From sequence record MN850617.1: a stretch of 42,476 bases of DNA. One strand, written 5' to 3'. How positions within the stretch are numbered: the first letter of the stretch is position 1; each line of letters opens with the position of its first letter. The position numbers were made by a program, and so were the translations under genes. Below the pieces are notes generated by a model. It made no database searches and had not been told where the DNA came from. It worked only from the letters and a program-made list of their open reading frames with translations. This document shows, piece by piece, positions 488-41,839 of this stretch. Source of the DNA: Escherichia phage forsur.

Positions 488-708
488 GTAGAACCCTGTA
501 CCAAGAAGATGTGGTGCAGCTCAAAGATGACGGCCTCTCGATAGACTGGGAGGCCAACACGCAGGTCGAGCTGTACAAAGATGGCACCGTCTGTATCTCG
601 CAGGAAGGGGAGCAGGTGTGGGTGCCGTGGGCATATGTCAAAGATATTATCTTCGCTCTTGAGGAAGCACACGATGCACATGAAAGACACCGTAGTAGTA
701 GACCTTGA
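484..708 (+). CDS. hypothetical small acidic protein (GTG start overlapping upstream stop as GTGA)
   Basis: 74-codon ORF from the six-frame track; start codon overlaps the stop of the phosphoesterase gene. Overlaps the next gene by ~35 nt. No recognisable motif. Confidence 0.35.
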   Translation: MSRTLYQEDVVQLKDDGLSIDWEANTQVELYKDGTVCISQEGEQVWVPWAYVKDIIFALEEAHDAHERHRSSRP

Positions 709-1890: not shown

Positions 1891-2124
1891 ATGAGCAGAT
1901 ACCAACGAGCCATTGAGGATACCGTGGTCGAGAAAGGTGTGTGCGGGGAGTGCCACGGCTGTGGCACATTCACCAGCATGACCATTCGACACGAGCTTGT
2001 CCAAACTGAATGTGAAGCCTGTGGTGGCACAGGCGTGACTGACCCGGCACTGCAACGTTCAGTGCTGCGGGAACAAGGTATGCGCTGCCAAGTGCAGCCG
2101 GGCTATGACCAACCAACGGAGTAA
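1891..2124 (+). CDS. small zinc-finger protein (CxxC...CxxC)
   Basis: ATG 1891 preceded by AGGAG; product contains CGECHGCG and CEACGG Cys pairs. Confidence 0.6.
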   Translation: MSRYQRAIEDTVVEKGVCGECHGCGTFTSMTIRHELVQTECEACGGTGVTDPALQRSVLREQGMRCQVQPGYDQPTE

Positions 2125-4559
2125 TGATGGACTTACTTGCTGAGCAGATTCGACTGGAAGAAGAAGCGCGAGCCAGACACCGCGAGGGCTGGCTGGATAA
2201 TATCAGAGAGGCGTTGGCCGCTGGCCGGGCTGGTTCAGTACCATTGCTCCAGCGTATGATGGTTGAGGCGTATCCTCAAGTTGAAGCTGCGATGCAAGAA
2301 CTCCTGAATGAAACTGCCCGTGGCTATGGTGCGCAGTACCGGACATACATGCGGGAGCTGGGGCCGCGAGCTTGTGCCTCACTCGCGTTGAGCATGGCTG
2401 TGTCCGGTGCCGCTGCTGAGCAAGCAGTGCTTAACTTGCTCAAGGACATGGGCAAGGCTCTCATGGCTGAGGTGGTGTACCTTCGGGCCAAGGCTGCCGG
2501 GCCTGTGCAGGCTGCGTACATGGCCAAGGTTAAGACTGACGTTAAGCGCTCTCGTTCCAAGTCAGCTAACCATGTGTATAACAAGGCGAAAGCGTCGGCG
2601 TCTAACGTTGGCGTTGAGCTGGATATCCTGCCACAGCGTGCGCTCATCACCATTGGTAAGATGATGATGAAGTGCATCGAGCCTACTGGTCTGCTGGTCA
2701 CTATGCGTGTCGGCGGCAACCACCGTCAGCGCGGCACCGCGCACTTCGCACTGCATGAAGATGTGCTGGCAACGATGAAAGATTGGATGGACTTGCCACG
2801 GGCAGACGGCCTGTGCTGTCCTCCAATGATTATCCCGCCAGCGCAGATTGCACGCGATGGTCGTAGTGGTATGTGGCACTCGCCGGGGCAGGCTGCCATG
2901 TACCGGGCAATCAGCCGCATGAACCACCGTGGCTACCGTGCGCTGGGTGTTGACCCACTGCCCATCATAGAGCCGTGTATGATGCTCAGCAGCGTTCCGT
3001 ACCGAGTTAACCCAATGGTATTGGAGTTCCTGAGAACGAACCGTACAGGCGTTATGGGGCTGCCTGTGCCGCCTCGTGAGCCTAAGCTCCCGTTCACCAT
3101 CCCGGCTGGTGTCAGCTTCGCTCAGTACATTAGCAAGTTCCCACCAGAAATGCAGCAGCAGATGGAGTCGGAAGCCCACGAGTACAAGGTGAAGACCCGT
3201 CTGTATTACAACGAGCTGCGCAAGTTCACGTCACAAATGCTGGCGCTGAACGGTGCAGTCAAAGAGGCCGAGCGCTATGCGCCATACGATAGGGTATATC
3301 TCCCGACTTACGCCGATACGCGGGGCCGAATTTATTATTCTTCGACCCTTAACCCTCAGTCCATCGACGCGGTGCGAGCGCTGCTCGAACTTGCTGAACC
3401 AGTGGCTCTCGGAGACGAGGGGCTGTTCTGGCTCAAGGTACATGTTGCGAATTGTTTTGGATACGACGCCACCGACTTCGACGACCGGGCGGCGTGGACG
3501 GACAAAACACTCCCCCGACTACGTGAGGCGTGCCGTCTTCCAGAGGCATTTGATTCGTTCTGGTCAGAAGCCGATAGCCCTATCTCAGCGTGGGCTGCTG
3601 CTGTTGAACTCATTCGAGCTATCGACTCAGGAAGTCCTGAGACTTATCCCTGCCGAGTGGTTACGCAGTGGGACGCTACATGTTCAGGACTCCAGCACCT
3701 CAGTGCGATGCTACGCGATGAGGTTGGAGGTGCTGCTGTCAATCTTGTCGATAGCGTGGGAAGAAAAGCAGACATATATCTTAAGACGGCAGCAGCGGCG
3801 ATGCAGGCTCTTGAAGAAAGTGAAGCGGCTGCGCCGACGACAATGGGTTCGTGGCTTGTTTCCATCGGCATTGTTCGGGCTATGGCCAAGAAGCCAGTGA
3901 TGACCTACGTGTACGGGGCAACCCGGCACGGCATGGTTGACTACTACTGCCTGTATCTGCGTGAGAACCGGGTCAAGCTGCCGGAGGGTAAGAGCCTGCT
4001 GGAGTGTGCTCAGTTCATTGCTGAGTTTATGTGGGCTGCTATCCCCCGCGTCGTGCCGAAAGCTGCCGAGCTGATGGCATGGTTGCAGGCTATCGCAGTA
4101 GAGGCTGCGAGCATGGGTGAGTACGTGGAGTTCACTGCGCCGTCCGGTCTTCGTGTGGTCAATCTGTATCAGGCCAGCAAAGAGATTGCGCTGAACAACA
4201 TCAACCTCATGGGTATCCACGGCATCAAGCTGCGCGAGTATCTGGATAAGCCAGATGGTCGCAAGTGTGCCGCTGCGATTGCTCCGAATTTTGTACACGC
4301 CATGGATGCCAGTCACATGATGAAGGTTCTGTGGGAGATGTGGAATAACGGGGTATACATGGTATCCATCCACGACTCGTTCGGTGTAGCGGCAGCCCAT
4401 GCTGGGTTACTGCACAAGGTCATCCGTGAAAAGTTTGTGCAGATGTATGAGGAATGTGACCCTATTCAGCAACTTGCGTCAGCATATAACCGTGAAGCTC
4501 CAGCTCGCGGTAATCTGGACATCCAGCTTGTGAAGAAATCAAGCAAGTTCTTCTGCTGA
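2124..4559 (+). CDS. single-subunit DNA-dependent RNA polymerase (T7-like)
   Basis: 811-aa ORF; contains QWDATCSGLQHLSAM (cf. T7 RNAP motif A DGSCSGIQHF) and VSIHDSFGV (cf. T7 motif C IHDSFG). Position immediately upstream of the structural module. Confidence 0.95.
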   Translation: MMDLLAEQIRLEEEARARHREGWLDNIREALAAGRAGSVPLLQRMMVEAYPQVEAAMQELLNETARGYGAQYRTYMRELGPRACASLALSMAVSGAAAEQAVLNLLKDMGKALMAEVVYLRAKAAGPVQAAYMAKVKTDVKRSRSKSANHVYNKAKASASNVGVELDILPQRALITIGKMMMKCIEPTGLLVTMRVGGNHRQRGTAHFALHEDVLATMKDWMDLPRADGLCCPPMIIPPAQIARDGRSGMWHSPGQAAMYRAISRMNHRGYRALGVDPLPIIEPCMMLSSVPYRVNPMVLEFLRTNRTGVMGLPVPPREPKLPFTIPAGVSFAQYISKFPPEMQQQMESEAHEYKVKTRLYYNELRKFTSQMLALNGAVKEAERYAPYDRVYLPTYADTRGRIYYSSTLNPQSIDAVRALLELAEPVALGDEGLFWLKVHVANCFGYDATDFDDRAAWTDKTLPRLREACRLPEAFDSFWSEADSPISAWAAAVELIRAIDSGSPETYPCRVVTQWDATCSGLQHLSAMLRDEVGGAAVNLVDSVGRKADIYLKTAAAAMQALEESEAAAPTTMGSWLVSIGIVRAMAKKPVMTYVYGATRHGMVDYYCLYLRENRVKLPEGKSLLECAQFIAEFMWAAIPRVVPKAAELMAWLQAIAVEAASMGEYVEFTAPSGLRVVNLYQASKEIALNNINLMGIHGIKLREYLDKPDGRKCAAAIAPNFVHAMDASHMMKVLWEMWNNGVYMVSIHDSFGVAAAHAGLLHKVIREKFVQMYEECDPIQQLASAYNREAPARGNLDIQLVKKSSKFFC

Positions 4560-4586
4560 ATAAAGCATTGTATTCCTTGCTTATTT

Positions 4587-4609
4587 ATGAAAGTGACTAT
4601 AGTGATAGA
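4587..4609 (+). promoter_or_regulatory. candidate phage RNAP promoter (T7/SP6-class core ACTATAG), putative +1 G at 4602
   Basis: ATGAAAGTGACTATAGTGATAG; the ACTATAG heptamer matches the -6..+1 core shared by T7 and SP6 promoters. Lies in the intergenic gap just after the RNAP gene. Exact inverted copy at 26463..26485; 14-mer direct copy at 4854..4867. Confidence 0.5.
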
Positions 4610-4666: not shown

Positions 4667-4852
4667 ATGGGTAAAGAATCTCCATTAGATAGAGTAACAT
4701 TCACTAAAGCTCAGATAGCTCTACTGGAAAAGCACTTCGGTACATGGGTACAGGTAGGCAGAACAGTAACACCTGACACTAACCTACCACTGATTAACAG
4801 AGAAGCTGGTAAGCAGGATGTACTGGACTTCATCCGTGAAAGAGTGATTTGA
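4667..4852 (+). CDS. hypothetical protein (61 aa)
   Basis: ATG 4667 preceded by GAGAGG; the ORF track starts it earlier at 4568 but that start lacks an RBS and covers the promoter-like element. Confidence 0.5.
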   Translation: MGKESPLDRVTFTKAQIALLEKHFGTWVQVGRTVTPDTNLPLINREAGKQDVLDFIRERVI

Positions 4853-4853
4853 A

Positions 4854-5273
4854 ATGAAAGTGACTATTATGGGAAATACAACGCACACGACTATGCCTCT
4901 TGACATTCGGCGTGCGGTGGCCGAGGGCATACAAGCCGAGCGGCCATGGTCAGACCTATCTCCCGATGTGATAGTCGAACGCATGTACGAGGCCACTGCC
5001 GCTGGTTGCGTTGACGTTTACATTACTGCCGACGACGATGGCCTCATGGCTGTTGCTCACATCGGCAGGTTATTCGATATTCATGTGGGCGAGATGGTGG
5101 TCATTATGGCCTCATACGTCTGGCCCCAGTACAGAAACCGTGGAGTGATGCGTGCCATCCTCCGTGTACTCAAAGACGTGGCCCGTTCCGAGGGTGTACG
5201 TTGGTGCGGTTACTCCCACATGGTGCGGCCTTACGTTCAGGAGTACCGCTTCATAGATTTGGAGAAACCGTAA
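4854..5273 (+). CDS. hypothetical protein (139 aa; alternative start 4869)
   Basis: ORF in track; first 14 nt are a copy of the promoter-like 14-mer ATGAAAGTGACTAT, so the true start may be the in-frame ATG at 4869. Confidence 0.6.
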   Translation: MKVTIMGNTTHTTMPLDIRRAVAEGIQAERPWSDLSPDVIVERMYEATAAGCVDVYITADDDGLMAVAHIGRLFDIHVGEMVVIMASYVWPQYRNRGVMRAILRVLKDVARSEGVRWCGYSHMVRPYVQEYRFIDLEKP

Positions 5274-13360: not shown

Positions 13361-16057
13361 ATGCCAATTATGCGTGACCAGCGTGGCGCAAATCTCAACG
13401 CTGCGCAACAGGGCGTACCGAATGTGCAGCAGGCTCAGACTCCGTTTAGTCTCGCAGGCCGCGATACTCGCATCGACACGTTCCCTACTGAGTCCATCCA
13501 GCGCGTACTCAACATGGCCAGTCAGTTGGCTGGCCGTGTCACTGAGCGTGCTAACGAGGAAGAATATCTCAAAGGTGCCAACGCCGCCGCGAGCGGTAAG
13601 GCTGTTGAGGATTTGGATTCGAACTGGCTGACTGCACAGTTCCAGAAAGCTGGTTATAACGACCAATTCAAGCGTATGCAGATGGCTGGCGTAGCCTCTG
13701 AAATCTCGGCCAACATGACCGAGTACGCTAAAATGTCTCCGCAAGACTTCCTGAAAGTCATTGATGAGAAGACTACCGGGCTGTTCGACAATACCGATGG
13801 TATGACCCTTCGCGGTCGCCAGTCGCTGCTGGAGAACCAGCTCACGTTCAGCAACACCCTGATTCGCACGCAGGCTGCGCAGCACGGTAAGTATCTGGTT
13901 GAGCAGCGTGCAGCAATGTACAACTCTCAGGGTAACACTCTGGTTACTCTGGCGGCTCAGGCCAAAGCATCCGGCGACGGCGGTGCGTATGCAAACGCCA
14001 CGGCTGCTACCATGGCTTGGGCTAAGTCCATTCTGGCCGATGACAAGCTGCCGCTGGAAACCCGGCGCACGCAGGTCACGTCCATGATGGGCCTGATGCT
14101 TTCGCAGGATTTGCGTACCCCGGTCGAGACGGCGGTTAACTCCGGCCTGTTCAACGACCTGCCTGCTGAGGACTTGGCCAAGCTGCAAGGTCAGATTCGT
14201 GAATCCAAATCTCGTACCGAGGTTCAGGATAACATGGGTCTGCTGGAGGCAAAGGGTCAGCTTGATGCTCGTCAGGCTGTGTTTGGTGACGTTACGCCGG
14301 GCCAGTACGGTCAGGTGCTCCAGCAGTTGGTGGACAACAAGCTCATCACTGCTTCCGGGTACAGCTCTGCTATCGAGTCCTTCTACAAGGATTACGCCAA
14401 GCAAGCCAAGGCCAGCCAGCTCGGTCAGGCATATGCCACCGGGAACCAGACGTACATGCTCCAGCAGGGCGCGAGTGAGCAGGATGGTGCTGACGCATTC
14501 ATCAAAGCTCGCATGAAGCAGCCGGGCGCTACGGCCAGTTCTGTGGCATTCGACCTGCTGCAAGTTGGCGCACAGACTGGCTTCCCATCTGCGTACAAAT
14601 CCGCAGCCAAACTGATTGAGCCATCCCTGTCGAACTTCGGCACCGTGGATGAGATGAACCCGGATGCTGCCCGTACTGTCACTGGTCTGATTGACCGTGT
14701 GACTGTGGCAGAAAATCAGGGTGACAAGACCGCATGGACTAAACTCCTGTCCGGTCTGTCTGAGGAAAACCAAGAGAAGATGGTGTACATGCGCGAGCAG
14801 ATTAAAGCTGGCCGCACCATCGACCAAGCTGGTCAGGGTTACATCAAGCAGCAGCAGGACTACGCTGGCTTGACCCCTGCTCAGAAATCCCAAATCTTAA
14901 CACAGCGTCAATCTGACGTGAACAGTGTAGTCAACTCACTTGAGTCCCAAGGCTTCTTATCTCGCACTTGGCAGGGCTTAGCTGGTCTGTTCTCAGACAC
15001 TCAGCAGAACCTGTTCCAAGCTCGCGTCGCATCTGGTGACATTACTGCTGCTCAGGAAATGTCGGAGGTGTCTGCCGCGTACCGCGAAGAACTGCAAGCC
15101 GTGGTGCTCAAGAACCCGAACATCACGAAAGACGGTATGGAAGCGCTTGCGTCTGCGAAGCTGGCCAACCGCGTGCTGCGCGTCGGGGAGACTACGTTCA
15201 GTCCCGGCTCTGTGCTTATCGCTCCGAGAAACCAAACTGTTCAGTCTATGCTTGGCCTGCCTGCTGACGTGGCACCTGACCGTATCGGTCGCGCCATCGC
15301 CTCACTTGACCAGAGCAAGGCACCAGAAGGTTTCGAATCGTCGTACTCGTTTATGCCCGATGGCTCACTGAACGTTCAGTTCTTCAACAAGACGGGTGAC
15401 GTTTCCCCGAACAGCTACCGGATTACGCCGCAGGCTATTCAGGAACGTATCCGTGAAGACGACCGTGCAGCCGCCACCGCAAATAACGAAGTCTACGGTG
15501 ATGGGAAACTCTTTGTCGATAAGTCCAGCAACATCGGGATTCGTGTCAATGGCGTGAATACTGCCGGGGTTGATGAGCAGCGTATGCTCTATGCCCGTGG
15601 TAAGCTGATTGAGTTCGAAGGTATCCGCAACACCACGTATCGTGACAGCACTGGCGTCCAGACCAACGGCATCGGTATCTCTGACCGCAGCCCGTACTTC
15701 TCTGAGGGTCAGGCTTCTGGTATGCGCGGTGGTACTGAATGGTCGCCTCGTACAATTCACGACACGTTCGTCAATCACACCAACATGGTAGCCCGGCAGA
15801 TGCCCGGTACTGCGGCAGCGCTGGGGTGGAGTCGTGACAACGACGCCCAGTTCCAGTTCATGATGCAGATTGGTTATCAGGCTGGCGCAAGCTGGTATCG
15901 CAACGAGGGTGCGTACAGCAAGCTGGCTGATGCTATCCGTGTTGGCGACCGTGACAAGGCTGTTCAGGCTCTGGCTGCGACTCCGGCTTACAAGCTGTCG
16001 CAGGATGAGCGCAAGCAGTATTACGTCCAAACTCTACTCGCAGGTATGCAGGAATGA
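13361..16057 (+). CDS. internal virion protein (gp15-like position)
   Basis: 898 aa; call is by position and size. Confidence 0.7.
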   Translation: MPIMRDQRGANLNAAQQGVPNVQQAQTPFSLAGRDTRIDTFPTESIQRVLNMASQLAGRVTERANEEEYLKGANAAASGKAVEDLDSNWLTAQFQKAGYNDQFKRMQMAGVASEISANMTEYAKMSPQDFLKVIDEKTTGLFDNTDGMTLRGRQSLLENQLTFSNTLIRTQAAQHGKYLVEQRAAMYNSQGNTLVTLAAQAKASGDGGAYANATAATMAWAKSILADDKLPLETRRTQVTSMMGLMLSQDLRTPVETAVNSGLFNDLPAEDLAKLQGQIRESKSRTEVQDNMGLLEAKGQLDARQAVFGDVTPGQYGQVLQQLVDNKLITASGYSSAIESFYKDYAKQAKASQLGQAYATGNQTYMLQQGASEQDGADAFIKARMKQPGATASSVAFDLLQVGAQTGFPSAYKSAAKLIEPSLSNFGTVDEMNPDAARTVTGLIDRVTVAENQGDKTAWTKLLSGLSEENQEKMVYMREQIKAGRTIDQAGQGYIKQQQDYAGLTPAQKSQILTQRQSDVNSVVNSLESQGFLSRTWQGLAGLFSDTQQNLFQARVASGDITAAQEMSEVSAAYREELQAVVLKNPNITKDGMEALASAKLANRVLRVGETTFSPGSVLIAPRNQTVQSMLGLPADVAPDRIGRAIASLDQSKAPEGFESSYSFMPDGSLNVQFFNKTGDVSPNSYRITPQAIQERIREDDRAAATANNEVYGDGKLFVDKSSNIGIRVNGVNTAGVDEQRMLYARGKLIEFEGIRNTTYRDSTGVQTNGIGISDRSPYFSEGQASGMRGGTEWSPRTIHDTFVNHTNMVARQMPGTAAALGWSRDNDAQFQFMMQIGYQAGASWYRNEGAYSKLADAIRVGDRDKAVQALAATPAYKLSQDERKQYYVQTLLAGMQE

Positions 16058-19000
16058 TTACACAAGAATCGCTCGACAAGTTCATGGCTCCCAAGCAGGG
16101 GGCCAACGCCCCTACGCTGGTGATTCCAGCTCCCGTAAAAGCTGAGACGCTCAGCACTCCACTGCAAGACGCCACTCGTCAGGGTGCCGTTGAGCAGTTT
16201 GATAAGATGCAGGAACTGGAAGCGACACCAATCGCCACGGCTTTGAGCGCTTCTGTGAAGAACTGGGATACCACTCAGCTCTTTGATGCGGCACTCAACA
16301 AGCCTGTGTTTCAGGCTGACCCGAACTTCCACCCGAACGAGGCATTGCAGAATGTCCAGTTCCCGGTGACTGAGGATGACCGCACATTCCTGTTCAAGTC
16401 CAAATCAATGGACGAGTTCAACTGGCGTACACAGCAGCTCCAAGAGATGCGCGAACGTACCCAGTTGGCTCACACTGCGCCAGTGATGAACGCAGTGCTG
16501 CAATTCGCTGACCCGCTGTACCTCGCCACTGACCTGCTCTCGATGGGAGCAGGCACTGCCCTGAAACTTGGTCGCCTCGGAACCGCCGCTGTCGGTGCAG
16601 CTTCAACTGCTGCCACTATGACAGCGGTGGGTAACGAAGCACGCCCAGTGTCTCAGAACGAGATTATCTTTGCGGCTGCCCTGCACGGGGCGGCCACCAC
16701 TGCATTCTATCGCCCCGCCGCTGCGCCAGCCCGTCGCCTTGATGAGCTGTCGCCGGAGGAATTTGCGGCAGAGATGCAGCGCCGTAACGGTATTGACCCG
16801 AACAACCCTCCGCAGTTCGACCCGAACAATGCCATGTCTCCGCTGGCAATGTCACTGGGCTTCGGGCGTCGCGGTGCCATGGAGACTGACGAGGTTCCTG
16901 AATCCATCCGGGCTGCGGCTCAGCGTGGACTCGACCTCGCTCGCCGTGGTGAGCAGACCAACCCTAAGCGTCCATTCCTTGAGTGGTCACTGTTCAAGTC
17001 GTTCAGTCAGCATTCTGACGAAGCCAGTGCTCTGGCCGGGCGTCTGCTGGATGACCCGCTGAATCCGAACATGACCTCTGCTGCTGCAATCCAGCGCGAG
17101 ACTCAGGCTCGCTTCGGTGTGCTGCTGAACCAGTATGAAGACACCCTGCGTAACGCCCTGACCACTGATGGCTGGAGTAACCTCCGGCGCTTCCGTGACC
17201 CGGTAGGCTATCGCCGGGCGCAGCAGGAGTTCGAGGCTGCTGTTCGTCTTGAGCTGGACAAGCGCATGATTGACAACAACTTCCGTGGCGCTAACCCGAA
17301 TGTGGCCGCTGCCGCCGACCGACTGGGCGAATACTCTCGCGCCGTGGGCCGGGAGCTGGAACGCAAGGGGATGGTTGAGCCGGGCTTCGTGGAGAAGAAC
17401 CCGTACTACTACCCTCGCCGGATGAACGTGACCAAGATTGAGCAGGCTGAGCAGTTGCTCGGTAAGAAGCCATTCATGAAGCAGATGACGACTGCTGTGC
17501 AGCGCGGCATCGGTACTGACCGACCGACTGCCAACGTCATTGCCCATGCCATGGTAGAGCGTGCTCGCCGTAAGGGTTACGGTATTGACAACTCCGGTAT
17601 GATTATCAACAAGGAGGGCCGCGATGAGCTGCTCGAAATCATTGAGAACTCGAAAGGACTCGACGAGGCTGCCAAGGCCCGTGCTTCCGCACTCCTTCGT
17701 GAATCTGGCTCGGACGCTGGCCGACCGTCGATGCTCAAGAGTCGTATCAACATCGACATGATGCACCAGCTCGGCCCTAACTTGCAGGTGCGTGACCTAT
17801 TCGACGACAGCATCACCAGCATGATGGATGCGTACAACCGCCGCATTACCGGGCGACTGGCTCTGCATGAAGCTGGACTGGGTACTGACGCCGAACGCGC
17901 TGCTGCTCGTGAGGCTCTGGCCAAATCCATCAAGGATGGTACGGCTCGTCGTCAGGCGCTGGAGCAGTATGACAACATCATGGCTTATTATCAGGGTGCT
18001 CCGGTCGGTGAGGAAATGCCGCAGTTCATGCGCCAGCTCTCAGCACTGACTCAGGCTACTGGTCTGGCTGCATCCGGTCTGTGGCAGTTGGTGGAATACG
18101 GCACGATGATGCAACGTTTTGGGGCGGTCAATACATTTCGCGCCATGATGCGCACAATCCCGGAAGCACGCGCATTATTTAAGCAGATGAGAGTGACTAC
18201 TAAGGAAGGTCGTCAGTTGGCCTTGGATGCTGAGGAAGCTCTGACTGCTGCGGTGGCGAGCGATATTCGTATGCGTCCAATCATGCAGCACTATGACGAC
18301 ATGTTCTCTGCTGACAAGTCACCGTGGGTTATGCGTCTTGAGCACGCCCGTGACGCCACGATGTTCATCAACATGCAGAAATACATCCACTTCCACCAGA
18401 CTCGAACCAACGCAGCTCTCGTGATGCAGACGCTGCGCAAGGCAGCAGAAGGTGATGCCAAGGCTATTGCCGCGATGAAAACCTATGGTGCCAATGATGC
18501 GCTGCTGGCTGATATCCGTAAGCAGGTTGCCAAGTCCGGCACCAAGCCGGATGCGTGGGATGAGGGTGTGTTCAACCGTACCCGCATCGTCATGATTAAC
18601 GCCATGGATGACGCTATTGTTCGCGCCCGTGTGGGCGAGCTGCCTGCATTCGCAGAGTTCAGTACCCTCGGTAAGTTCCTGTTTACGTTCCGTCGATTCG
18701 TCGCGGCTACGCACAACAAGACTCTGGTTGGTACTTGGAATCGTGAGGGTGCCCGTGGCATGGCTACGCTCATGGCGTACCAGTATCCGCTGGCGATGAT
18801 GGCCACCGCTGCCAACAACGTGATTTCCGGTAAAGCATTCTCTGACCCGGAAACCATGGCACCTAACAAGCTGGCTAGTCAAGCGCTGAATTACCTTGGT
18901 GCTATCGGCTTTGCCTCTGAGTTCACTGGTGTCCTGACTGGTCAGCAGCGTAGCTTCGGTGCGCCGGGGCTGCTGTTCCTTGACCGCGCTTATGGTGTGG

Positions 19001-19161
19001 CGGGTGCAGCTACCAGCGCTGCTGGCGGCGTGCTGACTGGCGATACCGAGCAGGCAGTGTCCGGCGCTCGTAAAGCGGCAGGTAACATCATCCAAGCTAT
19101 CCCACTCATCTCAATCGTGCCGGGCGTCCGAGCACTCAACGAAGCAGTTAAGGGTGAATAA
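16054..19161 (+). CDS. internal virion / ejection protein (gp16-like position)
   Basis: 1035 aa, start overlaps upstream stop (ATGA); call is by position and size; no lysozyme motif recognised. Confidence 0.7.
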   Translation: MITQESLDKFMAPKQGANAPTLVIPAPVKAETLSTPLQDATRQGAVEQFDKMQELEATPIATALSASVKNWDTTQLFDAALNKPVFQADPNFHPNEALQNVQFPVTEDDRTFLFKSKSMDEFNWRTQQLQEMRERTQLAHTAPVMNAVLQFADPLYLATDLLSMGAGTALKLGRLGTAAVGAASTAATMTAVGNEARPVSQNEIIFAAALHGAATTAFYRPAAAPARRLDELSPEEFAAEMQRRNGIDPNNPPQFDPNNAMSPLAMSLGFGRRGAMETDEVPESIRAAAQRGLDLARRGEQTNPKRPFLEWSLFKSFSQHSDEASALAGRLLDDPLNPNMTSAAAIQRETQARFGVLLNQYEDTLRNALTTDGWSNLRRFRDPVGYRRAQQEFEAAVRLELDKRMIDNNFRGANPNVAAAADRLGEYSRAVGRELERKGMVEPGFVEKNPYYYPRRMNVTKIEQAEQLLGKKPFMKQMTTAVQRGIGTDRPTANVIAHAMVERARRKGYGIDNSGMIINKEGRDELLEIIENSKGLDEAAKARASALLRESGSDAGRPSMLKSRINIDMMHQLGPNLQVRDLFDDSITSMMDAYNRRITGRLALHEAGLGTDAERAAAREALAKSIKDGTARRQALEQYDNIMAYYQGAPVGEEMPQFMRQLSALTQATGLAASGLWQLVEYGTMMQRFGAVNTFRAMMRTIPEARALFKQMRVTTKEGRQLALDAEEALTAAVASDIRMRPIMQHYDDMFSADKSPWVMRLEHARDATMFINMQKYIHFHQTRTNAALVMQTLRKAAEGDAKAIAAMKTYGANDALLADIRKQVAKSGTKPDAWDEGVFNRTRIVMINAMDDAIVRARVGELPAFAEFSTLGKFLFTFRRFVAATHNKTLVGTWNREGARGMATLMAYQYPLAMMATAANNVISGKAFSDPETMAPNKLASQALNYLGAIGFASEFTGVLTGQQRSFGAPGLLFLDRAYGVAGAATSAAGGVLTGDTEQAVSGARKAAGNIIQAIPLISIVPGVRALNEAVKGE

Positions 19162-21848: not shown

Positions 21849-23608
21849 TGGATTTACAACGCCGCATGGTGATGGCAGGAATCGTTCGCGCTCACTACGA
21901 GAACAACTTCCCGCTGTTCCTGCACGACTACTTCGCATGGCTGGGCTTTGACCTCACTGAAATGCAGCTCGACATTGGCCGCTACATGGCCGACCGGACG
22001 CTCAAGAACAAGTGCGTCATGGCGCAGCGTGGTGAGGCTAAGTCCACCATCGGCATTGCTCGCGCTCTGTACGAATTTGTGCAGATGCCGAACGCTACTG
22101 TCCTGCTCGTATCCGGTTCCGACGACTATGCTGGTACGCTGTCGCACGCTATCGTGTCGGCTATCATGCAATGGGACAGGTTGGAATGGTTACGCCCGGA
22201 GACTCGCGCTGGCGCACGTACATCGTACACCGATGGCTTCGACGTGCATCACGCATTCCGTATCCCTGACAAACAACCCTCTGTAAAAGCGGTCGGTATC
22301 TTCGGCCAGTTACAGGGGAACCACGTATCGCTGTTGATTGCCGATGACGTGGAGACTACCAGTAACGGTAGCTCTCCTGCCAACCGCGCCCGTATCAACA
22401 CCCTGACCAAAGAGTTCGCGGCTATCGCCAACGATGGTGCAGAGATTCTGTACCTCGGCACGCCACAGACTCAGGACTCCATCTACAACACGCTCCCGCA
22501 GCGTGGCTTCGACGTTCGCATCTGGCCCGGTCGTTTCCCAACGGTTGAGGAAGAAGAACGCTATGGCGGTTGTCTGGCCCCATGGATTAAGCAGAAGATG
22601 GAGGGCCACCCGGAACTTCGCACAGGCTACGGTATCCTTGGAAACCGTGGTGCGCAGACCGACCCGCAACGCTACTCCGAAGAAAAGCAGTTGCAGAACG
22701 AACGAGACTACCAGCAGGCAGGCTTCCAGTTGCAGTTCATGCTGGACACTTCTCTGTCGGATGCTCTCAAACAGACCTTGCATCTCAAGGACTTAATCTT
22801 CTTCCACGGCTCGCCTATCTCCGCGCCGGAAGTCTTGCATTGGTCGAATCACCCACGGCACGCCGCCGAGCTGCCACTGGATTTCCCACTCGCTCGTGCG
22901 CAGCTATTCTTGGCTGCTGATTTCTCGGACACTTATGTACCATTCGAAAATGCCTCGGCGTTTCTTGACCCTGCTGGTGGTGGGTCGGATGAATCAGTTA
23001 TCATCGTCACCGCTTCTATCGGCCCGTTTATCCACGTCCTTGGTATGCACGTCTACCACGGCGGCCAGACGGAGGAAAACATCCAGACGGCGGTGGCGTG
23101 GCTAGGTGAGCTGGGCTGCAAACGTCTCGTCATTGAGGACAACATGGGCCACGGCACCGTGACCAACATGTACCGAGGTGAGATTAAGCGGCAGAAGCTG
23201 ACCATGGGCTGCGAGGGTGTATACTCGTCCGGCCAGAAAGAGGTGCGTATCATCAACCGCCTCGGCCCAATCATGCAGCGCCACCGTGTGGTTATCCACT
23301 GGAGCGTTGTTGAAGAAGACCTGCGGTTATGCCGGGGTATGGCCAACGGTGGCCGTGAGTACAGCCTGTTCTGGCAGCTCCAGAACCTGACTCAAGACCG
23401 TCAATCCATCCCGCATGATGACCGAATTGAAACCTTAGCCGCTGCCGTGTACCTCCACGCCGAGGTGTTGCAGCAAGACGAAAACGAAGAAGCGGAGCGC
23501 CGTGCAGTCGCTGTGGCCAAAGAGTTCATCGCTAACCCTATGGGGTATGATGACCCGAAATGGCGCAGCCACAAGCCTGTACGCGGTACGCGACGGAGAA
23601 TTAGATAA
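21848..23608 (+). CDS. terminase large subunit
   Basis: 586 aa; KAVGIFGQLQGNHVSLLIADDVETTSNGSS...ILYLGTPQTQDSIYNTLPQRGFDVRIWP parallels recalled T7 gp19 ([30 protein letters not shown]...VIYLGTPQTEMTLY). Confidence 0.95.
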   Translation: MDLQRRMVMAGIVRAHYENNFPLFLHDYFAWLGFDLTEMQLDIGRYMADRTLKNKCVMAQRGEAKSTIGIARALYEFVQMPNATVLLVSGSDDYAGTLSHAIVSAIMQWDRLEWLRPETRAGARTSYTDGFDVHHAFRIPDKQPSVKAVGIFGQLQGNHVSLLIADDVETTSNGSSPANRARINTLTKEFAAIANDGAEILYLGTPQTQDSIYNTLPQRGFDVRIWPGRFPTVEEEERYGGCLAPWIKQKMEGHPELRTGYGILGNRGAQTDPQRYSEEKQLQNERDYQQAGFQLQFMLDTSLSDALKQTLHLKDLIFFHGSPISAPEVLHWSNHPRHAAELPLDFPLARAQLFLAADFSDTYVPFENASAFLDPAGGGSDESVIIVTASIGPFIHVLGMHVYHGGQTEENIQTAVAWLGELGCKRLVIEDNMGHGTVTNMYRGEIKRQKLTMGCEGVYSSGQKEVRIINRLGPIMQRHRVVIHWSVVEEDLRLCRGMANGGREYSLFWQLQNLTQDRQSIPHDDRIETLAAAVYLHAEVLQQDENEEAERRAVAVAKEFIANPMGYDDPKWRSHKPVRGTRRRIR

Positions 23609-24288
23609 TGTCCATCATCACCATCACTGATGCTCAGCGGTATGAGCTTGGTTATCGCTGCGGTATCGCAGCTAACGAGACTCAGCGCTTCATCAATGAC
23701 ACCCGTGCAGTGACGGCAGCTCAGGCTGCTGACATTGAAACGGCTATCACCAATCTGGTGGCGGCACTTGAGGCTGCTGGCTATGCTGGTACGCCGGAAG
23801 GTTCCGCTCTGCTGGCTGACGGCGCTACTGTATCTGTGGTCAACTCCGCAGGCAACGACGCGCACAATGCCACAGCCAACGTTACTGGCACCACGCTGGA
23901 TAATGTACAGCTCGTCCTGTCTACCGCAGCACTGGTAGACCACACTGACGCAACTGAGATTCGTCGCTTCGACGGCTCTATCCTTGGCATCACCACCGCT
24001 ACGGCCCGTGTAGCTGATGGTCTGCTGAGCAACGTGCGGCTCCCGGCCAACGCTGATGCAGTGGTTAACGGTACGGCTTATTCCGTCCGTAACTCTGCTG
24101 GCGCTGATGGCCACAACGCCACCGCTGTCGTGGCAAGCAACGGTGCTCTCTCCGGCTTCAACCTCGCCGCTACTGTGGCTATGGTGGATAACGGTGATGC
24201 ACTGGCAATCCCGGTCACTGGCACGTACACCAACACCGTGACCTTCGCTGTTTCCGCTGGTGCAATCACTGGCATTACCCTCTCTTAA
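23608..24288 (+). CDS. hypothetical protein with internal sequence repeat
   Basis: 226 aa; two similar segments (TVSVVNSAGNDAHNATANVTG / YSVRNSAGADGHNATAVVASNG); Ala/Thr/Gly/Asn-rich; located between terminase and lysis genes. Confidence 0.6.
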   Translation: MSIITITDAQRYELGYRCGIAANETQRFINDTRAVTAAQAADIETAITNLVAALEAAGYAGTPEGSALLADGATVSVVNSAGNDAHNATANVTGTTLDNVQLVLSTAALVDHTDATEIRRFDGSILGITTATARVADGLLSNVRLPANADAVVNGTAYSVRNSAGADGHNATAVVASNGALSGFNLAATVAMVDNGDALAIPVTGTYTNTVTFAVSAGAITGITLS

Positions 24289-24299
24289 TAGGAGTCTTT

Positions 24300-24485
24300 A
24301 TGGCACTTGTAGATTCTACCGCAGCCGAACGTGCAGAGTTCGTGGCAGCCTGTAATATGGCGGCTAAGTACCTGAACGTGTGGACTGAGGACTACTTCTT
24401 CGATACCACCAACACCACTCTGGTGGCGGCGTATCAGGCGTATGTCACTCGTGTGTCCAACGCGCTCACTGCGCTGACCAACTAA
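24300..24485 (+). CDS. hypothetical protein (61 aa)
   Basis: ORF in track, RBS AGGAG upstream. Confidence 0.5.
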   Translation: MALVDSTAAERAEFVAACNMAAKYLNVWTEDYFFDTTNTTLVAAYQAYVTRVSNALTALTN

Positions 24486-24494
24486 GGGGTCAAT

Positions 24495-24983
24495 ATGAAA
24501 CTGTCTCGGCTTATGGCCGGGGCAGTCCTGTCACTGTCCTTGACTTTGACGGGCTGCTCCGCAACAAGCGCACTGTCTGCTGTAACCTCGGCTGTCTCTC
24601 CCAATAAGCCGGAACTAACGGCACAGGTTGGCGCAGAGAACACGAAACAGGGCATCGGCTTGACTGCGAAACAGTCCGACGAAACGAAGGTCGGTGACGT
24701 ATCTGGTAACGCGCAAGTGGATACCGCTAAACAGGGTAGTGATTCGACGACTGTGAAGGACGTCACAGGAGGCTCTGTAAACGCTTCTAAGCAGGGTTCG
24801 CAGATTACCAATGGAAACGTGCAGGCTAAGACTATCGTGGTCTCTCAGAGCGACCCACGCAGTCTCCTGTGGGCATTTGGCATGGGCCTTACTTGTATCT
24901 TAGGTCTGGTGATGTGGTTTGTACCATCTCCGTGGAAGAAGAAGGTGAAAGATGACGGAAGCAAAGAAGGAGCCAGCTCCTAA
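24495..24983 (+). CDS. lipoprotein with C-terminal transmembrane segment (unimolecular-spanin-like)
   Basis: N-terminus MKLSRLMAGAVLSLSLTLTGCS is a signal peptide with lipobox LTGC; C-terminus LLWAFGMGLTCILGLVMWFV is a hydrophobic helix followed by KKK; RBS AAGGGG upstream. Confidence 0.6.
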   Translation: MKLSRLMAGAVLSLSLTLTGCSATSALSAVTSAVSPNKPELTAQVGAENTKQGIGLTAKQSDETKVGDVSGNAQVDTAKQGSDSTTVKDVTGGSVNASKQGSQITNGNVQAKTIVVSQSDPRSLLWAFGMGLTCILGLVMWFVPSPWKKKVKDDGSKEGASS

Positions 24984-25335
24984 CATCCACTCGCGTATGG
25001 GCGCTGTGGAGGCTCGTATGCAATCCGTAGAAACACGCCTCGACAAACACGAGATTCAAATCGCCAACCTTGAGAAAGGTGACGCTGCTATGCTGGCCAA
25101 GCTATCGGAGAACGACTCCCGGTGGCTGGAGATTCAGCAGCAGCTCCGTGTCGTCGAGCAAATTCAGGACATTCAAAAGACTATGAGCCACATCGGTAAG
25201 CTGTTCTCTTACGCGGCTCACGCCGTCAAGTGGTGTCTCCTGACCGCTTCACTCGTTAGCGGTATCTATCTTGCGGTCAAGGCTGGCGACCTAACGGCGC
25301 TCCAGTCCTTTATCACAACGATTATGGGGATGTAA
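24952..25335 (+). CDS. holin candidate (coiled-coil N-terminal region, C-terminal TMD)
   Basis: 127 aa; hydrophobic segment VKWCLLTASLVSGIYLAV near the C-terminus; overlaps the lipoprotein gene and directly precedes the endolysin gene. Confidence 0.4.
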   Translation: MTEAKKEPAPNIHSRMGAVEARMQSVETRLDKHEIQIANLEKGDAAMLAKLSENDSRWLEIQQQLRVVEQIQDIQKTMSHIGKLFSYAAHAVKWCLLTASLVSGIYLAVKAGDLTALQSFITTIMGM

Positions 25336-25871
25336 TGACTAACTTTGAAATCTGTATGAAGTTCACCGGGCTGGCCGAGGGTGGATACACCAAGCTGCCC
25401 GGTGACACTGGAGGGGAAACCAACCATGGAATTAGTGACGCTCGTGATGGGAAGCTGGATGGCAGAGCTTGTGGTGTCCCTACTGGGCTTGGCGGCACTG
25501 TGTGCGTGCCTATCAAAGACCTCACCAAAGAGCAAGCCGAGGCAATCTATCGCCGGGACTACTACAGCCCCATCAGAGGTGACGAGCTTCACCCTGCGAT
25601 TGCATGTGCCGTGTTTGATTACGGCGTCAACTCCGGCATCTCCCGTGCTGCTAAAGCTCTACAGCGGGTATGCGGCGTTGCACAGGACGGGGACATTGGT
25701 ACTGTCACCTTGGAAGCAGCACAACGTCTGGAACCTCACGCCGCAGCAGCAGCCATCTGTGACCTTCGTATTGCGTTCCTAAAGGCTTCTAAAGCCCCGA
25801 CAGTCGTTCGGTATAGGGATGCCTTGGTTGCTCGTGCAAAACGCTGTAGCGCTTACTGTGCGACGCTGTAG
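25335..25871 (+). CDS. endolysin, GH108-type muramidase domain with peptidoglycan-binding-like C-terminal region
   Basis: N-terminus FTGLAEGGYTKLPGDTGGETNHGIS matches the recalled GH108 signature (EGGY...D.GG.T..GI); C-terminal AAKALQRVCGVAQDGDIGTVT resembles PG-binding repeats; no signal peptide. Confidence 0.8.
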   Translation: MTNFEICMKFTGLAEGGYTKLPGDTGGETNHGISDARDGKLDGRACGVPTGLGGTVCVPIKDLTKEQAEAIYRRDYYSPIRGDELHPAIACAVFDYGVNSGISRAAKALQRVCGVAQDGDIGTVTLEAAQRLEPHAAAAAICDLRIAFLKASKAPTVVRYRDALVARAKRCSAYCATL

Positions 25872-26039
25872 GGGCATCTGAAAGCTGACACATTGAACAG
25901 GCCGTGGGTGCAATACCCCGGCTTGAAAATTGAACGTTTATGCGTGGGCCTCCCTCGACCCGAATGACCGCGCGTACCCCCATGACGTGTGCGCGGATTA
26001 GCCTCGCGACGTGCGCGATATTGCTCGCGTGCGCTGCGC

Positions 26040-26450
26040 GGCGCGTCAAGAGGATTGCCTGCGTGCGGTATAGCTCGTGCGTGTCGCGTTTCATCGTCTG
26101 CCGTGTGGCGTGCTGTGCGCTGTCCTGCTGGCTGTGCTGTGCGGTGCTGTCCTATGGGGACGCTCTGCGCTGGCTGTGCTGTGCTGCGTGCTGCGCTCGG
26201 TCGGGCGGGTATCTGTCTCTTTTGCCGTGGTACGCTCTGCGCCGTGGTGGTGCTGTGTGGTGGTGGTGCTGCCGTGGTGCTGTCCTGTCTGCTGGTCTAC
26301 TGTCTGCGCCGCCAGCTCTGCGCGTCATGCTCTGCTACCTGCTGCTACTGTCCTACTGCGTTCACTGGCTGCCGCCTGTCATCCTGTCGGATTCCATCCG
26401 TTGCCGTTCCGCGCTCGCTTGTTTCGGCTGCGCCGCGCTCGCTCTGCGTA
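26040..26450. repeat. A-depleted (C/G/T only on + strand) low-complexity block with degenerate GCTG/CTGTG/GGTG repeats; candidate terminal-repeat region
   Basis: Adenine is nearly absent on the + strand over ~400 bp, so no + frame contains a stop; non-coding position between the last late gene and the early promoters. Confidence 0.6.
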
Positions 26451-26462
26451 TCTAGCGATACA

Positions 26463-26485
26463 TATCACTATAGTCACTTTCATAA
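26463..26485 (-). promoter_or_regulatory. inverted exact copy of the T7-class promoter-like element at 4585..4607 (would fire leftward into the A-depleted block)
   Basis: + strand TATCACTATAGTCACTTTCATAA is the reverse complement of 4585..4607 (23/23). Confidence 0.4.
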
Positions 26486-26499
26486 TTATCTATTGATAT

Positions 26500-26590
26500 C
26501 AGTAACTTATAACCTATCTGATAACGGTATCTATCCTATGCAATAACCTATTCAATCAAATATTTATTCCTAATGATTACAGTAACTTAT
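26500..26590. repeat. AT-rich segment with 11-bp direct repeat CAGTAACTTAT (26500..26510 and 26580..26590)
   Basis: Read directly; copies are 80 bp apart, each preceded by TGAT; candidate origin or packaging iterons. Confidence 0.4.
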
Positions 26591-26622
26591 CCACTATTTG
26601 AGCTATTCAGTGAAAATAAATC

Positions 26623-26651
26623 TTGCAATGCTGTTTGTGATTTGCTGTAAT
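26623..26651 (+). promoter_or_regulatory. host sigma70-type early promoter P1
   Basis: -35 TTGCAA (26623..26628), 17-bp spacer, extended -10 TGcTGTAAT (hexamer 26646..26651); A-rich UP-like tract upstream. Confidence 0.6.
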
Positions 26652-26726
26652 TCTCATCGCCGGGTAGCAGAACATCGCTACACGGTGGCAAGACGGTAAC
26701 ACTGCTCTTTAACAATCTGGAGTGTA

Positions 26727-26755
26727 TTGACAAGGCAAGCTCACTATGCTGTAAT
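26727..26755 (+). promoter_or_regulatory. host sigma70-type early promoter P2
   Basis: -35 TTGACA (26727..26732), 17-bp spacer, extended -10 TGcTGTAAT (hexamer 26750..26755). Confidence 0.65.
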
Positions 26756-26863
26756 GCTTCCAGTCAGCCAGACAAGCCAAACAGTCATGGATAAAGACGT
26801 TAAAACCCGCGCAGGCTAACTGGTACGGATTATTCATCTCAGAATGGGCGCTGAATAAAACGG

Positions 26864-26892
26864 TTGACAGGATGAAACGAGTATGCTGTAAT
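26864..26892 (+). promoter_or_regulatory. host sigma70-type early promoter P3
   Basis: -35 TTGACA (26864..26869), 17-bp spacer, extended -10 TGcTGTAAT (hexamer 26887..26892); AATAAAA upstream. Confidence 0.65.
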
Positions 26893-26944
26893 ACGCTCCA
26901 GATTGACAGGGCAAGCAAGCCTGACAGTCAGTAGTAAAAAGTAG

Positions 26945-26973
26945 TTGACAAGCTGAATACACTGTGTTGTAAT
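26945..26973 (+). promoter_or_regulatory. host sigma70-type early promoter P4
   Basis: -35 TTGACA (26945..26950), 17-bp spacer, extended -10 TGtTGTAAT (hexamer 26968..26973); GTAAAAAG upstream. Confidence 0.65.
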
Positions 26974-27451
26974 CAGCACCGAGTTGGAAGGATGCAAAAC
27001 ATCCTGCTCTGAGTGAACGCAAACTGGCCGCGTAGTGTCACGGCTCACTGGGTATCCGCCGCAGGTTGGAACTGGGTGAGGCATCGCCGAAAGGCAACGG
27101 TATCGCAACAATGCTAACGCCGTAGGGGTAGCGCCTGATGCAAGGTAACGGAGAAGCGCGATAGACGCAGCGCAGTATCAGTACAATACCAAACGTCTTA
27201 TAAGGCGCGGAGTATAGCGGGTAGGTAGTCAAACGGCTTGTTAGCTGGCAACGGTGAGCAAGATACGCGACGGACTGCTGGAAGACTCCTGAGAGTGGAT
27301 GCAGACAATATCCACAGCGCGAAATGGGCGGGGCGATTTTTCAGGGTAGTGAATCCGACAAGCCAATCAATGCCACTGAGTGCAGACTGTACGGCGCGTC
27401 ACAATGGGTTCACTATCCACCTGAAAATAGCCAACAACTGGAGAAATAACT

Positions 27452-27844
27452 ATGTACCGTATCTATGCAAGCGCATATCGTCAGAACAACGCTGAGTGTG
27501 TTAATCTGGCGCTTCATTGCAAGGCACTGCGAACGGTGCAGGATATGTTCGGAGTGATTCCGGTCACACTGACAGGCAAGTTCGACAATGCGTATGAGTT
27601 AAGCATGGTCTTTCCTGTCGATGGAATCTACGAAATCAGACAGGCTGTTAAGCTGTTCTGTAAAGCCTTTGAACAGGACTGCATCATGGTAGTGACCGAT
27701 GACAATGATGCAATCTTCATGGATTCACCATATCCGGGCAAGCCTGCTGGCAAGTTTGTCAGCAAGACAGAAGCGGAGATGGAAGCCGGGCAGTTCACTG
27801 CTTGGACTTACGATGGTGAGCAATTTTGGGTAGTGGAGGCGTAA
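27452..27844 (+). CDS. hypothetical early protein (130 aa), first gene after the leader
   Basis: ATG 27452 with GGAG 8 nt upstream; ORF in track. Confidence 0.7.
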   Translation: MYRIYASAYRQNNAECVNLALHCKALRTVQDMFGVIPVTLTGKFDNAYELSMVFPVDGIYEIRQAVKLFCKAFEQDCIMVVTDDNDAIFMDSPYPGKPAGKFVSKTEAEMEAGQFTAWTYDGEQFWVVEA

Positions 27845-32988: not shown

Positions 32989-33213
32989 GCTCACCGTAAC
33001 CAAATCACCCACCGGATTATTCTGGTGGGTAGTTGATAAGCTGCAACCAAATAAACCTTTGGCTGTGCGTGATACAAAGTGGGAAGCCGAGAGTAAACTC
33101 GAAGACCTTCAACGTATTATGCGGAATGTTATTCCAGCTTAGCCATCTACTCATGCCAGTTATTATTTAGCTGGCATTATGAAGGTGACTATATTGGACA
33201 ACCCGGAGGAAAT

Positions 33214-40557: not shown

Positions 40558-41532
40558 ATGAGTAGACTTCAACGCTTACTCCACAATGCAGAGGAACTTG
40601 ATGACCAGTTTGATGGTTACGTGTCTGGTCGTATCTTGCTGTGCGATGCTGACTCCACGGTCTACGTCGCGGCAGCAACCACGAAGAACATCGAGACAGC
40701 GAAGACACGATTCTGTTCCGGGGTACTGACCGCCAAGTTCCTCGCCAATGCTCAGTCAGTTCGTATCGAGTTGACCGCTGCGGAGTGTACGAAAGCTGGA
40801 CGGTACAAGCTGCGTGGGGCCAAGCTGTACCAAGGCAACCGAGACAAAGACCGCAAGCCCGGTCTGGTCGAACCGTTGCGTAAAGCAATTGGCCGGAACA
40901 TGTTCAACGTCCCGGATGGTGAGGACTGGTACGTCCACCTGAACTTTGAGTTCGAGGCAGACGATACCTTAATCATGGATGCGTGGACGATTGGCATTAA
41001 CGATGCAGTAATCTACAGCGCGGATAAAGACCTGCGTTGTTGGCCGGGCAGATTCCTTGACCCGTATGACAACAAGGTGCTGGAGCCGTGCGTTGGTATT
41101 GGCAGGCTGTGGTGGCATGAAACGAAAAGCGACAAGTCGCTGGTCGGCCATGGGCCTATCTTCTTTTGGGCGCAGATGTTGATGGGCGACACCGCCGACA
41201 ACATTGCTGGCGTGAAGAAGGTTGGTAAGCAGACTGCCTACGACATGCTGGTTGATTATCAAGAGATTGATGATGAATCAGTGGTTGCGGAATTGGTGCT
41301 GCGTGAGTACATGCAGCGTGACCAGAACCCGTGGCCGGAGGCAGTGGCGCTGTGGCTGTACCGCACGCCGACCTACTCATTCGCAGCCCACTTGAACACG
41401 CTGACCTTGAGCAAGGAGCTGCGTGTCTGGCTGCATAAGAAACTGGGTGAGGAATGGTATGCGGAAAGTGACTGGCGCGACTCTGTTGCAGCTTCGGAAG
41501 AATGCGATGGGTTGCAACTGCCCACTCTGTGA
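40558..41532 (+). CDS. 5'-3' exonuclease (T7 gp6-like)
   Basis: ILLCDADSTVYVAAA, FEADDTLIMDAW...AVIYSADKDLRCWP and FFWAQMLMGDTADNIAGV parallel recalled T7 gp6 segments (ILVMDGDWLVFQAM, LEGDDVMGVI...AVIISCDKDFKTIP, WHLFQTIKGDITDGYSGI). Confidence 0.85.
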   Translation: MSRLQRLLHNAEELDDQFDGYVSGRILLCDADSTVYVAAATTKNIETAKTRFCSGVLTAKFLANAQSVRIELTAAECTKAGRYKLRGAKLYQGNRDKDRKPGLVEPLRKAIGRNMFNVPDGEDWYVHLNFEFEADDTLIMDAWTIGINDAVIYSADKDLRCWPGRFLDPYDNKVLEPCVGIGRLWWHETKSDKSLVGHGPIFFWAQMLMGDTADNIAGVKKVGKQTAYDMLVDYQEIDDESVVAELVLREYMQRDQNPWPEAVALWLYRTPTYSFAAHLNTLTLSKELRVWLHKKLGEEWYAESDWRDSVAASEECDGLQLPTL

Positions 41533-41839
41533 TGAGCCGATGGTTGACCTCAAGCTCATGGTGGTTGACCACGACCATGTGACTGGAGAGATTCGCGGTG
41601 TTATCTGCCGCTGGTGTAATGCTCAGCTCGGTAAGGTGGAGAACTCTGCCAACCGAGCAAAGCGCCAGCGCACAGTGGATGACTGGTTGGATAGCGCCAT
41701 CGAGTGGCGACGTAAGCAGCACACTGGTCTGATGTATCCGACACATAAGACAGAGGCTGAGAAGAAAGCGGCAGCAGCCGACAGACGTAAAAAGGCAGCA
41801 GCAGCTAAAGCGCGTGCCATAATCACTAAGGGGAAATGA
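41459..41839 (+). CDS. recombination endonuclease VII
   Basis: CNCPLCDEPM...VDHDHVTGEIRGVICRWCNAQLG matches the Endonuclease VII zinc-binding/catalytic signature; start uncertain (41459 with GAGGA upstream, or 41507); overlaps exonuclease gene end. Confidence 0.8.
   Translation: MRKVTGATLLQLRKNAMGCNCPLCDEPMVDLKLMVVDHDHVTGEIRGVICRWCNAQLGKVENSANRAKRQRTVDDWLDSAIEWRRKQHTGLMYPTHKTEAEKKAAAADRRKKAAAAKARAIITKGK

Follow-up and report, generated by a model that had tools for sequence, protein, structure and literature searches.

Layout of the forsur genome around a minus-strand element

The window analysed here is the whole 42,476-nt stretch of Escherichia phage forsur DNA (MN850617.1), in which all genes are carried by the + strand. 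A megablast search with positions 25500-27500 matched 19 phage records, all of them Bonnellvirus (Autographiviridae), including J8-65 and the Danish '-sur' coliphages as well as Kosakonia, Pantoea, Cronobacter and Enterobacter relatives. By homology, the window is a circularly permuted Bonnellvirus genome, of the phiKMV type of Autographiviridae. The gene order is phiKMV-like, with the RNA polymerase (RNAP) gene closing the DNA-metabolism block and the structural genes following directly. The J8-65 record contains direct terminal repeats of 259 bp (1-259 and 40723-40981), and the forsur left end and repeat were placed by alignment to this annotated repeat, so that both are homology-based positions rather than measured ones. 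By the same homology, a 23-nt minus-strand element at 26463-26485 faces outward, with the physical left end ~513 nt away and the repeat ending ~270 nt to its left. The features discussed below are listed in Table 1.

Table 1. Positions of the features discussed in the text, in window coordinates.
Feature	Position	Strand	Remarks
Single-subunit RNA polymerase gene	2124-4559	+	phmmer match to T7 RNAP structures, E = 5e-57
Promoter A (rightward, late)	4585-4607	+	26 nt past RNAP stop codon; predicted start 4602
Promoter-like site B, AAATGAAAGTGACTATTATGGGA	4852-4874	+	overlaps start of GNAT-like gene; poorer match at -2 to +1
Promoter-like site E, AGATGAGAGTGACTACTAAGGAA	18185-18207	+	inside internal-virion-protein gene 16054-19161
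Physical left end	~25955		begins TCGACCCGAA; from homology with J8-65 repeat start
Direct terminal repeat (single collapsed copy, approximate)	25955-26198		aligned to J8-65 1-259 / 40723-40981; right boundary inferred
Predicted transcribed region of D	25955-26467	-	~513 nt to physical left end; U-poor, non-coding RNA
Promoter D (leftward, predicted phage-RNAP promoter)	26463-26485	-	-17 to +6 in T7 numbering; predicted start G26468
AT-rich non-coding early region	26486-27451	+	directly behind promoter D; GC 41% in 26501-27000
sigma70-like promoter TTGCAA-17-TGTAAT	26623-26651	+	read from sequence
sigma70-like promoter TTGACA-17-TGTAAT	26727-26755	+	read from sequence
SAMase gene	27452-27844	+	annotation in relatives; preceded by sigma70-like promoters
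Promoter C, TTATGAAGGTGACTATATTGGAC	33177-33199	+	upstream of Shine-Dalgarno sequence and primase/helicase/DNA-polymerase cluster; covaries in all relatives

The initial annotation had described 26463-26485 as the exact reverse complement of 4585-4607, and a pattern search of the window confirmed this. The 23-mer TTATGAAAGTGACTATAGTGATA is present exactly twice, at 4585-4607 (+) and 26463-26485 (-); no additional copy was found in the window when up to 3 mismatches were allowed, and 100 dinucleotide-preserving shuffles gave 0 chance matches. In a scan of the whole window for repeats, the top inverted pair was 4582-4607 versus 26463-26488, with 96% complementarity over 26 nt. The A-depleted block toward which the element was said to point is likewise real, as positions 26040-26460 contain 25 A in 421 nt (5.9%) compared with 22.9% genome-wide. 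The block falls in the lowest-A 500-nt window of the genome, and the proportion of A on the + strand is 7.8% over the full distance from the predicted left end to the element (25955-26467). The element reads leftward, opposite to every gene, and the unit ahead of it is non-coding. Long open reading frames are present in the + frames of the block (25940-26546) because it lacks stop codons; we considered them as genes and rejected them, given that the indels among relatives are not multiples of three. Several relatives' records carry open reading frames of this block as hypothetical proteins (41017-41556; 41053-41460; 23520-24267).

Behind the element, the two sigma70-like sequences ahead of the SAMase gene are probable early promoters for the host RNAP. 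A sigma70 consensus scan of 23500-27600 yielded nothing exceeding shuffle expectation, and missed the sequences at 26623 and 26727 because both have a G at position 2 of the -10 element. A terminator scan of the same interval turned up no intrinsic terminator from the endolysin gene to the early region, and there was no Rfam match across 24500-27600 at a relaxed threshold. Just to the left of the predicted genome end, a hairpin, CCGTGGGTGCAATACCCCGG, is followed by the invariant sequence CGGCTTGAAAATTG (25895-25954, +). This arrangement is conserved in 7/7 aligned genomes and may serve to terminate late transcription or to signal packaging. Farther into the early genes, two repeated elements occupy intergenic positions between 28922 and 30049 (+), the first containing the palindrome CAGCTTCGAAGCTG (28922, 29405 and 30024) and the second consisting of GGGCAGTGCGGCAATCATGCC (28980, 29130 and 29748).

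Promoter motif and its covariation with the RNA polymerase

Sites A and D are identical from -17 to +6 and both are intergenic. The shared 23-mer aligns without gaps to the T7 promoter consensus, from -17 to +6 and with ACTATAG in register. The +1 position of D was assigned from this ungapped alignment, together with the analogy to KP34, in which the mapped start directly follows a 16-nt promoter element. Downstream of site A come a 5' hairpin, a Shine-Dalgarno sequence and an ATG at 4668, and the RNA predicted for D opens with a short hairpin, as does the promoter A transcript. Site B lies ~270 nt downstream of site A. In the J8-65 record, the annotated start codon of gp11 (5664; window 33179) falls within promoter C and precedes the predicted transcription start, and the altidsur record starts the equivalent gene after the downstream Shine-Dalgarno sequence; the J8-65 gp11 start is probably mis-annotated.

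Motif scans of ten Bonnellvirus genomes revealed five copies per genome, and the bases at -8 to -6 shift in concert within each genome. Four promoter types could be distinguished in this way: GTGAC in forsur and ROV85, GCTAC in usur and Kc261, GTGTC in altidsur, BHUENT7 and Ec1-ASingh, and GTAAC, combined with TGT in place of TAT, in J8-65 and Lidtsur. Site D is conserved on the minus strand in 10/10 of the Bonnellvirus genomes or fragments examined. Site B covaries with A and D, having GCTAC in usur and Kc261 and GTGTC in altidsur. At site E, which lies within a coding sequence, the switches between GTGAC, GCTAC and GTGTC keep pace with the remaining sites at the cost of amino acid changes (V-T, A-T and V-S). 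What is maintained at this position is therefore the DNA motif and not the protein sequence.

The polymerases vary correspondingly. In an alignment of seven of them, the most variable patch comprises residues 688-700 and includes a one-residue indel. Residue mapping by phmmer places this patch on the specificity loop of T7 RNAP (742-754), where R746 and N748 are the counterparts of forsur N692 and N694. Between the forsur and usur polymerases, 9 of the 13 residues in this patch differ, compared with 82/811 overall (hypergeometric p = 4e-7), whereas pairs of polymerases from genomes sharing a promoter type have 0 differences in it. Four loop variants are paired with four promoter variants, which together make up a natural set of candidate orthogonal RNAP/promoter pairs.

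Three independent lines of evidence, namely the form and place of the element, the concerted covariation of its copies and their match to the polymerase, lead us to read 26463-26485 as a leftward promoter for the phage's own T7-type RNAP, and we put the probability of this reading, for both identity and direction, at roughly 0.78. As is typical of T7-type promoters, the genome contains a cognate RNAP gene, a conserved element of ~20 bp is repeated in it at positions ahead of genes, including directly after the RNAP gene, and the element covaries with the specificity loop. The initial annotation had proposed a leftward phage promoter directed at the A-depleted block and, past it, at the end of the genome or the junction of concatemers. 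That proposal is supported by the covariation of the five copies with the loop, and it is further backed by the conservation of D in all Bonnellvirus relatives examined and by the existence of a mapped equivalent in LUZ19, described below. The promoter identity of D is therefore supported by comparison of sequences.

Leftward copies of phage promoter motifs in other genera

In the distantly related Pseudomonas phage LUZ19, ONT-cappable-seq identified four phage-specific promoters, of which two directly follow the RNAP gene, one lies in the structural region, and the remaining one is P001 (Putzeys et al., 2024; PMC10914365). P001 is located in the early region in the opposite orientation, and its antisense transcripts reach the right genome end over gp47-gp49; 15 other Phikmvvirus species share this arrangement, and the authors suggested that P001 keeps transcription out of the early genes on circularised DNA (PMC10914365). 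We mapped the corresponding motifs to 21115, 21312 and 35590 on the + strand, the last of these inside gp37, the homologue of the gene that contains site E, and to 732-751 on the - strand. The minus-strand copy is ~260 nt past the 472-bp repeat and faces an A-poor block (0-6 A per 50 nt).

The correspondence between P001 and D is close. Both consist of the motif of the phage's own RNAP, which also serves the late promoters, placed on the strand opposite all genes with an A-poor block ahead, and both lie between the left repeat (the boundary of which is homology-based in forsur) and host-type early promoters, ~260-275 nt from the repeat. The sister promoters are alike in place as well, with P007 corresponding to site A, P008 to site B and P009, in gp37, to site E. 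However, the two polymerases are only ~31% identical, the LUZ19 motif is unrelated (GGTTATGTCACACACA..GG), and Bonnellvirus, unlike LUZ19, has an extra promoter ahead of the replication genes. The LUZ19 antisense promoter is also known from transcripts, and forsur D is predicted from sequence. An antisense left-end promoter having already been described and mapped in LUZ19 in 2024, the Bonnellvirus site is very probably a further example of it.

Two other phages contain comparable copies. LIMEzero (Waewaevirus, FR751545) is the closest outgroup, with an RNAP that is 70% identical, and its motif differs from that of Bonnellvirus (AAGGCAAGCACTAAGG). Its record contains two + strand entries named 'putative phage specific promoter', at 7294(-7313) and 20330, which correspond to sites C and A. 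We found further copies of the motif at 20740, corresponding to site B, at 33866, and at 637-656 on the - strand, corresponding to site D. The latter, for which the depositors made no annotation, has an A-poor block ahead of it and AT-rich DNA behind. In the Ralstonia phage phiAp1 (Ayakvirus), the sequence at the RNAP stop codon recurs in inverted form at 596-613 (-), with 17/18 positions matching. This copy, which is also unannotated, is located just past the 416-bp repeat and ahead of the annotated host promoters. The LIMEzero and phiAp1 copies would add Waewaevirus and Ayakvirus to the genera with an antisense promoter of the LUZ19 type, such that a putative leftward promoter is found within ~180-275 nt of the repeat boundary in four genera.

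The leftward arrangement is not universal, because the left-end copy of KP34 (Drulisvirus) is on the + strand and no inverted promoter copy was found in PP90. The KP34 copy (475-490), which has been validated experimentally, and T7 phiOL resemble D in being phage-RNAP promoters located a few hundred nt from the left end and just past the repeat, but both of them are rightward (+) whereas D is leftward. We also considered a strict coupling between A-depletion and a leftward promoter. This was not upheld, as PP90 is A-poor with no detectable inverted copy, phiAp1 has the copy but is weakly depleted, and KP34 combines a rightward copy with mild depletion.

Every copy of the Bonnellvirus motif contains ATGAAAG, reading 'MKV...', and we considered and rejected the possibility that it represents a mini-ORF or duplicated gene start, as the ATG is absent from the A and C copies of LIMEzero (TATAAAGG and TTTAAAGG), in which the remainder of the motif is kept. 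More broadly, it is highly improbable that 26463-26485 is something other than a promoter, such as a binding site for another protein, the relic of a duplicated gene start, an inversion substrate or an assembly artefact: sites B and C do overlap annotated start codons in some records and the promoter assignment in Bonnellvirus does derive from sequence comparison, but A and D are outside genes, the LIMEzero copies dispense with the ATG, the covariation follows the RNAP specificity loop, at least 10 genomes sequenced independently of one another contain the element, and the collinearity of all relatives speaks against an inversion.

Predicted transcript of D and its possible functions

Taking 26463-26485 as a leftward promoter, RNAP made in mid-infection would start at approximately G26468 and proceed leftward, traversing both the A-depleted block and the terminal repeat. 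If the genome is of unit length, the transcript would run off the left end after ~513 nt; on a concatemer it would cross the junction and continue as an antisense RNA into the lysis and terminase genes of the upstream copy. That D fires and that its transcripts pass over the junction we infer by analogy with LUZ19. Since the template is poor in A, the RNA cannot hold U-tracts or stop signals of the AUCUGUU type, and transcription should therefore reach the repeat and the end. With no terminator recognised in the interval that separates the endolysin gene from the early region, late transcription could plausibly read through junctions, and convergent transcription from D would oppose such read-through from the upstream copy into the early region. 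We therefore tentatively favor a role for D as an insulator at the concatemer junction, a reading that we hold with less than even confidence and that leaves the strong A-depletion of the transcribed block unaccounted for. In our ranking of the possible functions, junction processing comes after insulation, and replication priming or origin function comes last.

The initial annotation had likened the element to the terminal promoter of T7, from which transcription through the concatemer junction is implicated in DNA maturation. The T7 promoter in question, phiOR, is situated upstream of the junction and points rightward, in the same direction as the genes, sending transcription into a class II pause site. 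Pausing at the T7 concatemer junction has an established role in DNA maturation (Lyakhov, 1997; Zhang and Studier, 2004). D resembles phiOR in being a phage-RNAP promoter near a genome end whose transcripts, in this case predicted, cross the terminal repeat. The geometry is nevertheless the opposite one, with D downstream of the repeat and reading leftward; D is thus neither a rightward promoter upstream of the junction nor one whose polymerase would meet a class II signal, and the analogy did not hold in the form proposed.

A sequence resembling the T7 signal is present on the other strand. TATCTGTCTCTTTT, at 26210-26223 (+), is an invariant island within variable DNA in seven Bonnellvirus genomes and is located ~12 nt past the J8-65 repeat boundary, at the right edge of the repeat. 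It is similar to the T7 class II pause/termination signal (HATCTGTT/ATCTGTT followed by a U-run), which is likewise found at the right edge of the T7 repeat. Being on the + strand, it can act only on rightward polymerases and not on those coming from D, and it could bring late rightward transcription to a halt at the junction of concatemers. No class II-like motif was present at the repeat ends of LUZ19 and KP34, and we rejected the motif as a general feature on this basis.

The maturation role raised in the initial annotation can be put as follows: within concatemers, passage of the leftward RNAP over the repeat, or an R-loop there, would flag or open the junction so that terminase can cut it and the repeat can be duplicated, by analogy with T7 RNAP pausing at the concatemer junction. 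We regard this as doubtful. It would fit with the proximity of the promoter to the repeat boundary in the four genera, with a transcribed unit that is exactly the repeat plus its flank, with an A-poor template whose RNA, having no U-tract or stop of the AUCUGUU type, will reach the repeat, with the conserved class II-like sequence at the right repeat boundary, and with the established maturation role of the T7 junction pause. Counting against it are the reversed geometry relative to phiOR, the + strand location of TATCTGTCTCTTTT, where it has no action on D polymerases, together with its absence from the LUZ19 and KP34 repeat ends, and the fact that KP34 and PP90 have no leftward copy.

Replication is an improbable alternative to the insulator role. 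D might prime leftward DNA synthesis, or it might act as an origin by opening the AT-rich DNA behind it via negative supercoiling; it might also help concatemers to form by displacing the 3' end of the repeat, in the manner of T7 promoters at primary and secondary origins. T7 promoters do act as origins, and the very AT-rich segment 26486-26640 directly abuts promoter D. However, in a T7 origin the AT-rich region is downstream of the promoter, while in forsur it is upstream of D and the downstream DNA is 61% GC. The RNAP gene is, moreover, expressed after the replication genes.

Hybrid energies could be taken to favor replication. According to nearest-neighbour estimates, the leftward RNA:DNA hybrid has a value of -0.124 kcal/mol per nt relative to the duplex, compared with -0.032 for the rightward one, and no other leftward window in the genome has a more favourable value. 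This advantage nonetheless amounts to a deviation of only ~2 SD from the genome-wide average, and rightward RNA does equally well in some coding windows (-0.138). In phiAp1, the inverted copy is present despite weak A-depletion. RNA from the A-depleted block folds more poorly than shuffled sequences on both strands (z = +2.2 and +2.1), whereas the leftward RNA of LUZ19 has a better fold than its shuffled versions (z = -1.8), which is inconsistent with the forsur result.

A more general idea, which we consider unlikely, is that an outward promoter and a U-poor unit over the repeat together form a conserved cis-acting end-processing module of phiKMV-type phages. The hybrid energies, the folding z-scores and the loose coupling of A-depletion to a leftward copy, as given above, lend it little weight. 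If this were true, leftward transcription that no signal can stop, or an R-loop, would have to cover the repeat for concatemers to be formed or resolved or for the ends to be replicated. The purpose of D would then not be gene regulation, and the class II-like motif on the + strand would be the matching stop for rightward polymerases.

Whichever function applies, the leftward promoter reading of D adds to what has been reported for these phages. The papers describing Bonnellvirus phages mention no promoters or terminal repeats, no promoter is annotated in the Bonnellvirus sequence records examined, and the LIMEzero record lists phage-specific promoters on the + strand only. What is new here is a complete predicted map of phage-RNAP promoters for Bonnellvirus, with five sites and four specificity types that match the loop variants, and this set may serve as raw material for orthogonal RNAP/promoter pairs. 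Bonnellvirus phages infect E. coli K-12, a tractable host that permits direct tests of insulation, junction processing and replication priming. The LUZ19-type antisense left-end promoter appears to recur in at least three further genera, and hence in at least four in total, with RNAP identities down to 31%, and its recurrence across such divergent polymerases argues that the element is functional.
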